Shown: positions 57,801 to 63,800 of the stretch, in pieces
Numbering within the stretch: the stretch's first letter is position 1
How the letters are laid out: the number at the start of each line of letters is the position of its first letter
Origin: an uncultured Verrucomicrobiota bacterium
Lineage (GTDB): Bacteria > Verrucomicrobiota > Kiritimatiellia > CAIQIC01 > Lenti-01
DNA: 64,000 nt
Assembly: GCA_938003985.1 (NCBI GenBank)
Contig: CALKWZ010000031.1
Location: 4,173 to 68,172, forward strand
Reading direction: 5' to 3'
Program-made: the position numbers

Positions 57801-60800
57801 GCGGCCTCGAGCGCGGCGTCGTCGATGCCGGAATGCCGGCTCTGCGGACACCAGAAGACGTCGTCGAGCCCGCCGGTGATGGGGTGGCCCGGCACGAGGC
57901 TGCGCGTGGGATAGACCCCGAACACCTTCTGCGGATACATCTTCTTCTCGATGCCGAGGTACTTCGCCAGCGCGAGCCCGCCCCAGCAGATGCCGAGGAG
58001 GCAGGTGCCGGACGCCCGCGCGACGTCGATGATCCCGCACAGTTCCTTCCAGTAGGTCACGGTTTCCCACGGCAGTTCCTCGACCGGCGCGCCGGTCACG
58101 ATCAGGCCGTCGAGGGAGGCCACCGATTGCGCCCAGTCGTAGGGCACGTAGTGCCGGTCGAGGTGGGCGTGGTCGGAACTCTTGTAGTCGTGCGTCCGCA
58201 GCCGGATCCAGATGGGCACGATCTGGAGGATGCTGCGGCCCATCGGCGCGAGGAGGTTGAATTCGTAGTCCTCCGCGTGGGGCATGATGTTGAGGATGCC
58301 GATGCGCAGCGGACGGATATCCTGGTGCTCGGCGGCCTCTTCGCTCAGCCACGCGACGTGGTTGCGGTCGAACAGCGGCTTGAGCCGGTGGTTGGGCGAC
58401 AATCGAATGGTCACGGTCGGTTCCTCACAAGCAAATCATCCTGCCACCGGGCGCCCGCGGCTGTCCATCCTAGAAGTAGAGATCGCGCTCGCCGGCCACG
58501 ATGCGCCGGTAGTTTGCCTCGAACGCGGGCCAGATCTTCGGCTGGGTGCGGCGGGTTTCGTCGAGTTCCTTTTGCAGCAGCGCCGCGCCGACGGCCTGGG
58601 TTTCGGGCGTGGCGAAGTCGTCGAGCCATTCCTTGAAGGTCAGGATGGCGTTGAGCTTGCAGAACTTGCCTTCGGCGCCGCTGCGCAGGAGGTCCATGAT
58701 GCACTTGCCGGTGCGCCCGCAGCGGTAGCCCGCGGTGCAGAAGCTGGTGATGCAGCCCGCCGCGGCCCATTCGCGGACGCACTCGTCGAGGCCGCGCGGA
58801 TCGCCCAGCAGGAACTGCTGGCGCTCGCCCTTCTGCTTCTCCTGCCCGTCGGCGTAGGCGCCCACGCCGACGTTGGAGGCGGCGTCCATCTGCGTCACGC
58901 CCAGCGGCAGCAGGCGCCGGCGCATGGCGGGCGTCTCGCGCGCGGTGATGATCAGCCCCGCGTACGGCACCGCCAGCCGCGCCAGGACCACGAGGCGCTC
59001 GAAATCGTCGTCGGACACGCGCCACTTCGGCTGGTCCACGAAGGGGGTGTTGACGGCGGGTTCGAGGCGCGGGAACGACAGCGTGTGCGGGCCGATGCCG
59101 CAGAACCGCTCCATTTCCAGGGCGTGCGCCTGCTGGCCCAGCAGCTCGAAGCGCCAGTCGGAAAGCCCGTAGAGCGCGCCGATGCCGTTGTCGTCGATGC
59201 CCGCCTCCTGGGCGCGGTGCATGGCCGTCAGCCGCCAGCGGAAATCGCTTTTGACGGTCCCCGCGGGATGCAGCTGGGCGTAGGCGCGCCGGTCGTAGGT
59301 CTCCTGGAACACCTGGAAGGTGCCCAGCCCGCATTGCTTCAAGGTTTTCAGTTCCGCCACGCGCATCGGCGCGGCGTTGACGTTCACGCGGCGGATCTGG
59401 CCGACGCCCCGGCGCGTCGGCACCTTCACGGAATAGACGGCGCGGATGCTCTCGGCGATGTAGTCCACGTCCGTGTCCGGATGCTCGCCGTAGACGACGA
59501 TCAGGCGCTTGTGGCCCAGCTGGCCGGCCAGCGCCTCGGTCTCGGCGCGGACTCCGGCCATGTCCAGCACGCGGCGTTCCACGGCGGGATTCGAGCGGCG
59601 CAGGCCGCAGTAGGCGCAGTCGTTCACGCATTTGCTGCCGAGATAGAGCGGCGCGAAGGTCACGATGCGGTTGTCGTAGACCTTGCGCTTGACGGCGCCC
59701 GCCGCCGCGCGCATCTCGGCCCAGAGTTCCGGATCGCGCACGCGCAGCAGCGTCGCCAGCTCCGCCAGCGTCAGCGTCTGGATCGCGAGCGCCTTGGCGA
59801 CGATCTCCCGCACCTGCGCCGTTTCCGGCGCGCCGGTTTCCGCCAGCAGGCGGTGGATCTCGGCGTCGGGAATGAAATCGGCCCCGCCGGTGCCCAGATA
59901 CTTGTCGATTTCCGCCGGGACGATGCGCGCGCGCGCCCAATCTTTCTTTTCTTCCAGCAACATGGTTCCAACCTGGCTTTCCGGCCCCGGTTTCCGGGGG
60001 GCCGATCCCGCGAACGCGCCGCAATCCACGAGGTAAAACGCTTTGGGCGGAATCGCAGGAACCATACACCCCGGCGGCCGGTTTCTCAACTGCGCTCTTC
60101 GCGGCCCCGGCGCGGCGCGGTTTTCCTTGCCGAAGCCCGCGCCGCCGCCTATCTTCTCTCGTTTAAATACCTACCGAAGGAGCCCGTCCCCGCCATGAGC
60201 GAATCCACCGACAAATCCGTCAGTTCCCTGCGCACCTTGTTTCTGATCCTGCTGCCCCTGCTGGGCATCGGGCTCGTGATCGCCGTCATTTTCGCCACCC
60301 AGGCCAAGAAAAAAGCCGTCGTCACCGTGGTCGTCGGCGCGGACGGGACCGGCGCCGCCGCCATCAACACCGGCGAGGTCATCGACGCCACCGGGGCGGC
60401 GGGCTACGGCCTCGTGCCCCGGCTGGGCTACCGCTACCAGGTGTTCGTGGACGACGAAAGCGACGACCGCTCGTCCGGCATCGCCAAGATCGGCGGCCTC
60501 GCCACGTTCATTCCCGACGCCCGCCGCGGCCAGACCGCCATCGTGGACGTCACCCGCGTGCGCGAGCGCGTCGTGGACGCCGTCCTCGTCAAGGTGGTTT
60601 CCCAGGTCGATCTGCCGCCCAAGGCGCCGCGCGCCGCTTTCGTGCCCCCGGCCGGCGATCCGGCCGTCGAGGGCGCCGAACTCGACGTGGTCATTTCCGA
60701 AGCGTCGTCCAAGAATCCCGAGACGGAAGGCGTGGCCAAGATCGGCGGCCTGGTCGTTTTCGTCAACGGCGTGACGACGATCGGCGAACGCGTCAACGTG

Positions 60801-63800
60801 CGCATCGTCGAACGCCGCGAACGGCTGGCCTTCGCCGAACCCACGGGCAAGCCGGCCGGCACCGGCCCCCTGCCCATGATCGCCTCGAGCCGCGCGCCGC
60901 GCGCCGCCTACGTGCCGCCGGCGGGCGATCCGGTCGTCGCGGGCGCGGAACTGGACGTCGTCATCGCCGAGGAATCCGAAAAGAATCCCGGCCTCGAAGG
61001 CATCGCCAAGGTCGGCGGCCTGGTCGTCGCCGTCAAGGGCGCGACGACCGTCGGCGAGCGCGTCAACGTGCGCATCGTGGACCGCAAGGAGCGCATCGCT
61101 TTCGCCGAGCCCACCGGCCAGCCCGCCGGCACCGGCCCCCTGCCCGTCATCGAATCCAGCCGCCCGGCGCGCGCGCCGCGCCCGGCCTTCGTGCCTCCCG
61201 CCGGCGATCCGGTCGTCGCGGGCGCGGAACTGGACGTCGTCATCGCCGAACAATCCGAAAAGAATCCCGGCCTCGAAGGCATCGCCAAGGTCGGCGGCCT
61301 GGTCGTCGCCGTCAAGGGCGCGACGACCGTCGGCGAGCGCGTCAACGTGCGCATCGTGGACCGCAAGGAGCGCATCGCTTTCGCCGAGCCCACCGGCCAG
61401 CCCGCCGGCACCGGCCCCCTGCCCGTCATCGAATCCAGCCGCCCGGCGCGCGCCCCCCGGCCGGCCTTCGTGCCGCGCGCCGGCGATTCCGCCCCGCACG
61501 TGGTGCCCGGCGCCGTGATCTCCGCCACCATCGCCGAGCCGTCCAACAAGAATCCCGAAACCGAAGGCGTCGCCAAGGTCGCGGGCCTCGTCGTGTTCGT
61601 GAAGGGCGCCACGACTCCCGGCCAGACCGTCCACGTCCGCATCACGGACCGCAATCCGCGCGCGGCCAGCGGCGAGGTCACCAGCGACCCCGTCACGGCC
61701 GAAGCCCCGGCCCCGGCCCCGGCCACCCCCGCGCCGGCCGTCGTTCCGGAAGCGCCCGCGGCCCCCGCGGCCCCTTGATCGCAGCCCCCCGCCGAGGAGA
61801 ATCCCATGGCCAAAACCCTCACCAATGAACGCAACCTCCGCCAGCGCCAGGAAGCCATCGCGCGCGATTTGCGCCTGCTGAAACAGATGCGCCTCGTGGA
61901 ATGGGGCGCGGCGGCGCTCTTCGTCGCCGCCGGACTCCTGCTCAAGGCGTTCGGCGTGGAGGCCGCGCCGTTCGTGCTGTTCCTCGGCGGATTCCTCGTC
62001 TTCCTGGCGCTGGGCCACGAAGCCCGCCGCCGCGAACAGCTCGAAGAGCTGGCCGATACCGAACAGATGCGCGGCGCCAAGGAAGCGGTGGCCCGGTTGC
62101 TCGACGACAAGCTCGCCAACGACCACTACGTCCTCAACGACCTGCACCTGAAGGTCGGCCGCGAAAAGTGCTGGATCGACCATCTCGTCGTCGCGCCCTC
62201 GGGCATGTTCGTCATCAACACGATGAACTGGGAAGGCAAGATCGTCGGCGACACCGCCAAGCAGTCCTACGTCTGGAAGATCCGCGCCCCGGACGGCAAA
62301 ATCCGGCCCGCGCGCAATCCGGTGGGCCGGGCCCTGCGCGAACGGCGCATCCTGTGCAACTGGCTCAAGGGCACGAACCTGATCTGGGAGCGCGTTTTTC
62401 CGCTGGTGGTGCTGGCGAATCCGAACGCGGACATCCAGGTGACCAACGCCGGCACGAAGGTGATGACGCCCGAAAAGGCCGTCACGTTCATCAACGATTT
62501 CTGCTTCGAAAAGCCCGTGCTGTCCAACGCCGAGGTCGAAAAGCTGGCCCAGGGCCTGAACGAACACTCCGGCGAGGCCTGAGCGGACCGGAGCGCCCGG
62601 CGTGGCCAAGATCCTCCGCAGCGAAAACAGCCTGCTGAAACGCCAGCTCGCCATCGGGCGCGAATTGTCCCGCGGCGGGGCCATGCGGATTCTGGCGTGG
62701 GCCGCGGCTCTCGTCGTCGCCGGGCTGCTGGGCGCCCATGCCCTCCTGACCCACACGTATCACGGGGCGATTTTCGGCGCGCTGGCGCTGGTGTTCGCCG
62801 CCGGCTACGAGGTCCATCTGCGCGAAATCGCCGTTGAAAGCCGCAATCTCGAAGGCGGGCGCCGCGGGGAGCAGAAAATGGCCGAGCGCCTCGCCGAGCA
62901 GCTCGCCGACGACCACGTGATCCTCAACGACCTCGAACTGCGCGTCGCGCACGAGCGGGCGCAGATCGACCATCTCGTGATCGGGCCGTCCGGCATCTAC
63001 GTGATCGAATCGAAGTTCTGGGCCGGCACGCTTTCCGGCGACGTCCGCGACGCCCAATGGACGCAGAAGAAATCCAACGGCTCCGTCCGGCACGTGAAGA
63101 GCCCGGTCCAGCAGTGCGAGCGCCAGCGGCGCATGTTCATCACCCTGCTGGCCGCCCGGGTGCCCGAGGACCGCATCCACGCCTTGGCGGTGTTCACCCA
63201 CCCCGCGGTGAAGCTGCAGATCGCCAACGGCCAAGGGCGCGCGTTCCACGTCCGCGACGCCATCCGCTTCATCAACGACCGCTGCTTCGAGCCGCCGGTC
63301 CTGACGCCCGCCGCCGCCCTCGAACTGGCCGAACGGATCAACCGCGGCCAGGCTTGAACGGCGCCCGCCGTTCTGCTACACGATGAGCGGGGCCGGGGCG
63401 ACGCCCCCGGCCCGGAGAAAATGCGTTGCCCATGTCCCGTCCAGCCGGCGCCGATGCGTTGCGGATTCCGTTGCGGCGGAAATTCGCGCTGCTGGCCGCC
63501 TATGCGCAGGAGCGCCTGGCCCGCCAGGTGCGGGCGGTGGCGTTCATCACCGCCTATTTGGCCTTGTTCCAGTTGTTCGTGCTGAAAGCGCCGATCGCGG
63601 AGTTCGCCCAGATCGCCTTGGGCATCCTGGCGGTGATCGTCGGGCTGGCGCTGTTCATGGAGGGCCTGTTCCTGGCCATCATGCCGCTGGGCGAGCGCTG
63701 CGGCCTGCGCTTGCCGGCGCGCGTCGGCATCGGCGCGCTGGTGGCCTTCGCGGCGGTGCTGGGCCTCACCGCCACCTACGCGGAACCGGCCATCGGGTTC

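Follow-up and report, generated by a model that had tools for sequence, protein, structure and literature searches.

A conserved operon of a TRAM-domain array and paired membrane-anchored NERD proteins in an uncultured Kiritimatiellia clade, with a possible role in nucleic-acid handling at the membrane

YacL-type TM-PIN-TRAM proteins (TM, transmembrane) and the membrane-anchored RNase Y unite a nuclease fold with a membrane anchor and with a domain that binds RNA, either TRAM or KH. In these proteins, the nuclease fold is of the PIN or HD type, all parts belong to one polypeptide, and a single TRAM domain is present. A different arrangement is encoded in a 64,000-nucleotide stretch of the genome of an uncultured member of the Kiritimatiellia in the phylum Verrucomicrobiota (GenBank assembly GCA_938003985.1, contig CALKWZ010000031.1, positions 4,173 to 68,172), here referred to as the window. 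It consists of a membrane-anchored protein with an array of TRAM domains and, encoded directly downstream, two paralogous membrane-anchored proteins, NERD1 and NERD2, whose NERD domains have the PD-(D/E)xK fold. These three genes, the trio, are conserved as a unit in related species and are described below. It is the combination that is new: all of its domains are already known, and its logic is like that of known systems, which pair a membrane nuclease with a binder or an active enzyme with a pseudo-enzyme. The literature searched contains no mention of NERD together with TRAM or ComEC.

The only characterised NERD nuclease is ZwsA (Zowangsin), an RNA endonuclease of anti-RNA-phage defence that carries an RNA-binding S4 domain (bioRxiv 10.64898/2026.04.06.716636). 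It needs residues E535, D567, E580, and K582 for defence, and the K582A variant serves as the inactive control in cleavage assays (same source). SmdA of Staphylococcus aureus has a TM segment and a degenerate NERD domain and affects cell division and morphology (PMC9040797). The characterised stand-alone TRAM proteins bind RNA but neither single-stranded nor double-stranded DNA (PMC5572242, PMC6705878). Finally, in DNA uptake, ComEA is a DNA receptor (bound to the membrane in Gram-positive species) that gives the pulling force, the metallo-beta-lactamase (MBL) and OB domains of ComEC are extracytoplasmic, and in Streptococcus pneumoniae the inactive MBL domain of ComEC is made good by the membrane nuclease EndA.

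The window has a base composition of approximately 70% G+C. The trio and its parts are located in it as follows (aa, amino acids):

60195-61778, plus strand: TM-anchored TRAM-array gene (527 aa; PF01938 in five copies, 111.8 bits)
60417-60596, plus strand: TRAM repeat 1, a divergent first copy (aa 75-134)
60669-61685, plus strand: TRAM repeats 2-5, a tandem array (aa 159-218, 249-308, 342-401, and 438-497)
61806-62582, plus strand: NERD1, predicted hairpin-anchored pseudo-nuclease (258 aa; PF08378, 58.4 bits)
62602-63357, plus strand: NERD2, predicted hairpin-anchored nuclease (251 aa; PF08378, 91.1 bits)
62968-63015, plus strand: codons for D123...E136-S137-K138 of NERD2, the active site predicted from alignments

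An earlier note on this DNA grouped the trio with a divergently transcribed radical SAM gene into a four-gene cluster. All four open reading frames (ORFs) are present at the coordinates it gave, and independent gene calls for the source contig (ENA ERZ724087 NODE_146, 140 kb) agree. The spacing of 19 to 23 bp given there for the NERD genes needs correction: the actual gaps are 27 nucleotides (nt) between the TRAM-array gene and NERD1 and 19 nt between NERD1 and NERD2.

With 58.4 and 91.1 bits, NERD1 and NERD2 both exceed the gathering cut-off of PF08378 (22.1 bits); they are 34% identical to each other. Each starts with a strongly basic N-terminal tail of approximately 7 Lys or Arg residues, which is followed by two hydrophobic segments joined by a loop with approximately one such residue. 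According to the positive-inside rule, this charge distribution predicts that the N terminus and the nuclease domain are both cytoplasmic. The AlphaFold2 models (pLDDT of 89.4 for NERD1 and 87 for NERD2) have the same architecture: an N-terminal strand, an antiparallel helical hairpin, and an alpha/beta nuclease domain of the restriction-endonuclease-like type. The closest solved folds to the nuclease domain of NERD2 are the PD-(D/E)xK nucleases Can2, Cdn1, and VC1899, while a search against solved structures with the NERD2 sequence gave nothing meaningful. The first 11 residues, M-A-K/R-I/T-L-x-x-E-x-x-L, are shared by NERD1 (61806-61840), NERD2 (62602-62636), and the NERD protein of a sister lineage described below, with A2, L5, E8, and L11 invariant. 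This N terminus is modelled as the beta-strand and may serve as a docking element.

The predicted active site separates the two paralogs. In NERD2, the motif IDH-x13-ESK is unchanged in all 35 orthologs, and E118, D123, E136, and K138 vary little or not at all. The length of the protein is also stable: 251 aa in nearly all of approximately 150 cluster representatives (a few range from 228 to 253) and in most species loci, with 248 to 265 aa in the most divergent ones; sequence identity among orthologs is 51 to 97%. In NERD1, the corresponding site (IDH..VINTM in the window) has Glu replaced by Asn, Asp, Lys, His, or Ser and Lys replaced by Met, Leu, Ile, Phe, Val, or Asn, so that in none of 33 orthologs is the catalytic Lys present. 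Since NERD2 keeps the residues that ZwsA needs and NERD1 is without the Lys, NERD2 is predicted to be an active nuclease and NERD1 a folded, conserved pseudo-nuclease partner; that the two pair with each other we infer.

NERD2 shares with ZwsA the catalytic Glu, Asp, and ExK residues and the 13-residue spacing from Asp to Glu, and in both systems the nuclease works, or would work, with a dedicated nucleic-acid-binding domain. However, ZwsA is one soluble protein of the VHS-DUF647-NERD-S4 architecture, whereas the trio consists of a separate membrane-anchored binder and nuclease and has an additional pseudo-nuclease paralog. With SmdA, the NERD proteins of the trio have in common a membrane anchor at the N terminus, a long helix, and a NERD-like domain in the cytoplasm (a predicted location here), and conserved residues are lost in both SmdA and NERD1. 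SmdA, in contrast, has a single TM helix, is monocistronic, and has neither a TRAM partner nor an active paralog; its orthology to the trio proteins is not evident from the sequence.

The third protein matches PF01938 with 111.8 bits (cut-off of 21) over five stretches and the NCBIfam model of PyTRAM RNA chaperones with 108 bits (cut-off of 85), likewise over five stretches. It consists of a short N-terminal tail, a single hydrophobic segment (aa 14-35, approximately 21 residues, mean Kyte-Doolittle value of 3.05) that forms the predicted anchor, a conserved INTGxVIDAT segment, five TRAM domains on Pro/Ala-rich linkers, and a Pro/Ala-rich tail, and it contains no Cys residues. The best family match of each repeat is to the stand-alone archaeal TRAM RNA chaperones (NF053605; PMC5572242, PMC6705878), but these are soluble single-domain proteins, whereas the bacterial array carries 4 to 7 copies behind a membrane anchor. 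Repeat 1 is only 15 to 17% identical to the other repeats and aligns with the first TRAM domain of the sister-clade proteins. In the remainder of the array, Tandem Repeats Finder detects a period of 279 nt with 3.1 copies and 87% matches, and the cores of repeats 3 and 4 (60939-61397) have 99% nucleotide identity, which points to a recent tandem duplication.

Among orthologs, the array varies from 4 to 7 repeats and from 411 to 697 aa. In another sample of the same species (L004, 2831-4129), the allele encodes 432 aa and is short by exactly one 95-aa repeat; the number of copies may truly be polymorphic, or the assembly may have collapsed a repeat. The side of the membrane on which the array resides is ambiguous in the clade of the window, where the mean difference between the charges that flank the anchor (N minus C) is 0.0. 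In the sister clade, an N-in/C-out orientation, with periplasmic TRAM domains, is favoured in 20 of 24 proteins. An exhaustive HMMER search of 1.84 billion representative sequences found only 103 relatives of the TRAM-array protein. In addition, two metagenomic proteins, P0364 and P0365, have a region that is approximately 60% identical to TRAM repeats 1 and 2 of the window and is located behind ankyrin repeats or a formylglycine-generating-enzyme-like region; they lack the usual membrane anchor and end in a Cys-rich, zinc-ribbon-like tail.

When a profile built from NERD2 orthologs is run on a single genome for each GTDB species, it retrieves 30 loci with NERD2 proteins of 51 to 96% identity, all from metagenome-assembled genomes (MAGs) labelled Kiritimatiellia, Verrucomicrobia, or Lentisphaerae. 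Below these loci, there is a sharp drop to generic NERD domains from other phyla (25 to 38% identity). The genes follow one another as TRAM array, NERD1, NERD2 on a single strand wherever the upstream DNA suffices (29 of 29 related loci), namely, in 25 of the 30 GTDB species loci (contig ends truncate the remaining 5) and in L001 and L007 to L009, and the intergenic gaps are 3 to 57 nt in all but one locus. Of the cluster suggested in the earlier note, the TRAM-array gene and the two NERD genes thus do form a compact, conserved, undescribed module. In 19 loci, the identity of the trio proteins to those of the window tracks that of the flanking metA, gpsA, and serine hydroxymethyltransferase (SHMT) products, with Spearman coefficients of 0.86 for NERD1, 0.84 for the TRAM-array protein, and 0.57 for NERD2. 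As judged from this gene order and divergence, the trio is a vertically inherited operon of one uncultured Kiritimatiellia clade that behaves as a core function; it very probably represents a functional unit in which NERD2 is a nuclease.

Unlike ZwsA, the trio is not island-borne. The approximately 30 large ORFs of the window that were scanned against Pfam include gyrA, gyrB, folD, and aroE, as well as transporters of the ABC and MacAB-TolC types and a GGDEF protein; with gyrAB, folD, and aroE, the window is part of the core chromosome. Searches with tblastn of 72,556 plasmids and 50,697 phage records reveal no orthologs of the trio, only generic NERD domains with at most 30% identity and less than 80% query cover. 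A role as mobile-element cargo was rejected given the absence of orthologs from these collections. PADLOC reports no system match and finds similarity only at the level of the NERD sub-domain (to PglW and to a NERD+UvrD candidate). The NERD proteins of the trio score 18 to 36 bits against PglW (cut-off of 990) and 37 to 59 bits against MAD6 (cut-off of 460), and no kinase, methylase, or helicase partner is present. With such sub-domain scores and without these partners, the known defence systems considered (PADLOC-DB, BREX PglW, MADS MAD6) were rejected as an identity for the trio. As a separate observation, the only defence-like neighbourhood seen is that of one divergent species (L008, 1006-3307), where genes for an EcoRI-type methylase and a GmrSD_N+HNH protein lie approximately 2.5 kb upstream of the trio.

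In 10 related loci (L015 to L018, L026, L032, L034, and L036 to L038; for example, L036 8919-9671), NERD2 is directly followed, on the same strand, by a gene for a PHP-domain phosphoesterase of 245 to 250 aa. This protein shows weak similarities to nucleoside-bisphosphate phosphatases, to the RNase RNM, and to the PHP domains of polymerases. Neither the window nor its contig flank contains a PHP gene; that position is taken by a DUF1538 protein and a 377-aa protein of unknown family.

Related genes also occur together in a sister lineage. Second-tier relatives of the TRAM-array protein, from MAGs of Kiritimatiellia or Verrucomicrobiota, are approximately 300 to 330 aa long and 30 to 38% identical, with the same anchor, an INTG...IDAT-like segment, and three TRAM domains. 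All six recovered sister loci (L096 to L101; for example, L098 6001-11406) have the gene order TM-TRAMx3, TM-NERD with an intact ETK motif, s1, s2, and a ComEC-like gene. Of these, s1 and s2 encode small membrane proteins (67 to 74 aa) in which motifs like GVLYLLPC and SPIWQSN.DYY occur; the ComEC-like protein is 1100 to 1150 aa long and contains the DUF4131 and Competence domains. Successive stop and start codons overlap, so that, as read from the gene boundaries, the five genes are translationally coupled; the proteins are approximately 40 to 50% identical between loci. The MBL motif HxDxDH (t-H-p-D-a-D-H in 30bt) reads t-S-P-R-P-E-R or similar in the sister ComEC-like proteins, and the downstream HH is replaced by AH in that of L098. 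By these substitutions, the nuclease motif of the sister channel is degenerate. L101 has a second active-type NERD gene upstream and an extra TRAM gene downstream. A metagenome scan with a 7-sequence alignment gave 80 loci, of which 3 are true sister loci and the rest contain generic single TRAM domains.

The sister operon thus presents the same combination as S. pneumoniae with its ComEA, EndA, and inactive-MBL ComEC, namely, a membrane binder, a membrane nuclease, and a nuclease-dead channel. There is no homology between the binders or between the nucleases: the TRAM domain stands in place of the helix-hairpin-helix of ComEA, and NERD in place of the beta-beta-alpha-Me fold of EndA. Furthermore, prediction places the NERD domains in the cytoplasm and not outside, as for EndA. 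The N-in/C-out orientation predicted for the sister TRAM anchors would fit a ComEA-like role.

The trio is preceded by the divergent radical SAM gene, which the earlier note counted as a fourth member of the cluster. This side of the locus has the following features:

58470-59963, minus strand: HydG-type radical SAM gene (497 aa; Pfam Radical_SAM and BATS domains)
59964-60194: divergent intergenic region between hydG and the TRAM-array gene (231 bp)
57452-58414, minus strand: metA, a housekeeping gene downstream of hydG
56457-57455, minus strand: gpsA, a housekeeping gene downstream of hydG
55769-56446, minus strand: GerE-type response regulator gene, downstream of hydG, metA, and gpsA

The radical SAM protein scores 401.1 bits against the HydG model TIGR03955 (equivalog cut-off of 312.15) over positions 9 to 470 of the 470 in the profile. 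Residues 28 to 497, which include the C-terminal domain, match the solved HydG of Thermoanaerobacter italicus (4WCX) with an E value of 8.5e-113, the CX3CX2C motif of the radical SAM cluster is CVNDCAYC at aa 112, and the orthologs carry the name HydG at NCBI. An identity as ThiH was rejected (TIGR02351, 233.6 bits, below the cut-off of 380). Three homologs of 62 to 66% identity, with the same motifs, are found in TM1266-like, hydF, hydG clusters of MAGs from Kiritimatiellia, Omnitrophota, and Verrucomicrobia; two of these clusters continue with another radical SAM gene, which is hydE-like, and the cluster in the Kiritimatiellia MAG (L091/L092) lies near genes for a multimeric [FeFe] hydrogenase of the HydABC type. 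By its full-length match to the family (4WCX, 4RTB), its CX3CX2C motif, and the hydF-hydG clusters of its close homologs, the gene is a genuine hydG, the maturase of the [FeFe]-hydrogenase H-cluster. Of the earlier ThiH/HydG-family label, the HydG part therefore holds and the ThiH part does not, nor does the view of the gene as an orphan with no known role.

The protein differs from the usual HydG in its auxiliary-cluster motif (aa ~409-440), which reads CTAGYRCGRTG...C where the canonical one is CTACYRxGRTG...C (CX2CX22C). The outer two Cys residues align with those of the canonical motif, and the middle Cys is replaced by Gly, with a Cys located three residues later. This variant is common to all 120 closest homologs (62 to 96% identity; Kiritimatiellia, Verrucomicrobia, Omnitrophota, and TA06). 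Since these include the members of hydF-hydG clusters, the variant appears to mark a HydG subfamily and not a different enzyme, and the altered motif is probably functional. No description of a CTAGYRC-type HydG subfamily was found in the literature. The second difference from the usual HydG is in gene context, as far as this region of the genome is concerned. As the earlier note remarked, the usual partners are missing: among the approximately 30 Pfam-scanned ORFs of the window there is no hydA, hydE, hydF, or thi gene, and the 10 kb that follow its 3' end are likewise free of these hyd and thi genes. Instead, hydG is co-directional with metA, gpsA, and the response regulator gene (55 nt between the first two genes, then an overlap of 4 nt, then 10 nt), and this block is kept in 16 related loci. 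Such operon company is odd for a hydrogenase maturase.

Membership of hydG in the module did not withstand comparison of gene neighbourhoods. It adjoins the TRAM-array gene in 16 related species and is not there in 10 (26 informative species in total), whereas the trio is always together. In L018, hydG alone is missing from an otherwise syntenic region and the metA-gpsA-regulator block lies 163 bp from the TRAM-array gene; in L007 and L019, his genes are located upstream of the trio. On the basis of synteny and of the hydF-hydG(-hydE) contexts of its homologs, the radical SAM gene was excluded from the module. The neighbour presents an annotation trap: it is simply hydG and offers no guide to what the module does. 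As for regulatory sites, there is a single sigma-70-like site upstream of hydG (minus strand, 60089-60061). Promoter and terminator scans are otherwise at the background level, and Rfam, used in the search for structured RNAs, has no matches over 55000-64000, intergenic regions included.

The best overall explanation of the trio and its link to DNA uptake, which we favour tentatively and consider possible rather than probable, is membrane-tethered capture and cleavage of nucleic acid, most probably DNA on its way across the inner membrane. NERD1 and NERD2 would form a hetero-oligomeric membrane-tethered endonuclease with one kind of active subunit, and the helical hairpins would hold both of them to the inner membrane on its cytoplasmic side. 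The multivalent array of OB-like TRAM domains might capture the nucleic-acid substrate or hold it at the membrane. Because the sister module is coupled to a nuclease-dead ComEC-like channel, DNA handling during uptake is the most likely of the possible functions, and the module could act on single-stranded nucleic acid, most likely DNA that crosses the inner membrane. The predicted cytoplasmic location of the nuclease and the frequent PHP partner suggest that the uptake may serve catabolism; in the many relatives that encode it just downstream, the PHP phosphoesterase could finish the degradation.

A more specific version of this proposal has the TRAM array and the NERD proteins as unrecognised accessories of ComEC-dependent DNA uptake in Kiritimatiellia, with TRAM as a multivalent, membrane-tethered receptor or ratchet for DNA (analogous but not homologous to ComEA) and NERD, in this clade an active enzyme with its pseudo-enzyme, as a nuclease that acts in trans to process or degrade the imported DNA where the MBL active site of ComEC has been lost. 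We regard this version as doubtful. Several observations weigh against an uptake function in general. In the clade of the window, the trio is never found beside comEC (35 loci), in contrast to the sister operon, and tblastn with s1, s2, and the ComEC-like protein finds no matches in the window or in any of these 35 loci; the contig flank of the window has no comEC, s1, or s2 gene either. The MBL and OB domains of ComEC are extracytoplasmic whereas NERD is predicted to be cytoplasmic, so NERD would be no like-for-like replacement of the MBL domain. If the TRAM anchor has the orientation favoured in the sister clade, with a periplasmic array, the array and the NERD domains would be on opposite sides of the membrane. 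Finally, the precedents are with RNA: stand-alone TRAM proteins bind RNA and not DNA (PMC5572242, PMC6705878), and the NERD domain of ZwsA cuts RNA (bioRxiv 10.64898/2026.04.06.716636).

If uptake-associated capture and cleavage is the function, the trio represents a new, evolutionarily independent set of parts for nucleic-acid handling at the membrane, made up of an array of OB-like TRAM domains together with a NERD nuclease and its pseudo-nuclease. It would then provide a second physiological context, beside that of ZwsA, for the poorly understood NERD domain and a new answer to the question of which nuclease handles DNA in uptake, possibly for feeding on DNA. The sister operon, whose ComEC is nuclease-dead, would offer a candidate, open to direct test, for the nuclease that compensates for this loss in a Gram-negative lineage.

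The missing linkage to comEC, the location of NERD, and the RNA precedents make membrane-associated RNA processing or decay a serious rival, although we consider it less likely than the uptake explanation. Here, the TRAM array would recruit RNA to the membrane and the NERD1/NERD2 pair would cleave it, as an analogue of RNase Y or YacL, and the PHP protein would be a 5'-3' exoribonuclease or a nucleotide phosphatase. Such a function is consistent with the cytoplasmic location predicted for the NERD domains, with the scores of the TRAM repeats above the cut-off for archaeal RNA chaperones, which bind RNA and not DNA, and with the nature of ZwsA, the sole characterised NERD nuclease, as an RNA endonuclease with an RNA-binding S4 domain. 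It would also suit the core-like vertical inheritance among housekeeping genes, which in L036 include those for ribosomal proteins and EF-G. However, no functional neighbour other than the ComEC-like DNA channel is conserved in any of the lineages, and general RNA decay factors are usually widespread, whereas this module is confined to a narrow clade. A membrane sensor with a nuclease that degrades invading nucleic acid on entry, as in the defence-like reading of the earlier note, appears unlikely. Domain-level similarity to PglW, MAD6, and the NERD+UvrD candidate of PADLOC does place NERD among the domains of defence proteins, ZwsA is a NERD defence nuclease, the trio of L008 lies near the EcoRI-type methylase and GmrSD-like genes, the number of TRAM repeats differs between close relatives, and a cytoplasmic nuclease at ComEC could police incoming DNA. 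Against this, PADLOC recognises no system, the NERD scores of 18 to 59 bits are far from the cut-offs of 460 to 990, and plasmids and phages yield no orthologs; typical defence islands are patchy and mobile, whereas this module is found in every species of the clade, at a conserved core position, and co-diverges with housekeeping genes. With the PADLOC similarity confined to domains, divergence like that of housekeeping genes, a core-chromosome location, and no plasmid or phage orthologs, positive evidence for a defence role is lacking, and the broader idea put forward with it, a membrane-associated module that targets nucleic acids, stays the best description.

The remaining two explanations are less likely still. 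The trio might have a non-nucleolytic, structural role in the cell envelope like that of SmdA, which is also TM-anchored, has a cytoplasmic NERD-like domain with several conserved residues missing, and is needed for normal division; the degenerate site of NERD1 would be in line with this. The retention of the catalytic residues of NERD2 in 35 of 35 orthologs, the partnership with an array of nucleic-acid-binding domains, and the association of the sister module with ComEC instead of division genes make such a role very improbable. Even harder to credit is the original four-gene cluster, in which the HydG-like enzyme would produce a small molecule or a modification for the TRAM and NERD proteins. 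The divergent 231-bp region, shared by the window and 15 other species, and the unusual C-terminal Cys motif of this HydG subfamily could be taken to suggest it. Nevertheless, the comparative data contradict it: hydG is missing beside the trio in 10 of the 26 informative species, including L018, homologs with the same motif belong to TM1266-hydF-hydG clusters (two of three continue with a hydE-like gene, and one adjoins an [FeFe] hydrogenase), and the sister modules have no radical SAM neighbour.

The surroundings of the locus include several further genes. In the 10 kb past the 3' end of the window, the DUF1538 membrane protein and the 377-aa protein are accompanied by glycosyltransferases and by a 561-aa fusion of ribose-5-phosphate isomerase B (LacAB_rpiB) with SHMT, located approximately 3.3 kb past that end (L001 14030-15715). 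The RpiB-SHMT fusion is present in most of the related loci, with 84 to 96% identity across the clade. Within the window, at 16823-19675 on the plus strand, there is a gene whose 950-aa product carries a PD-(D/E)XK nuclease domain (PDDEXK_1) at its C terminus and is possibly AddB-like.

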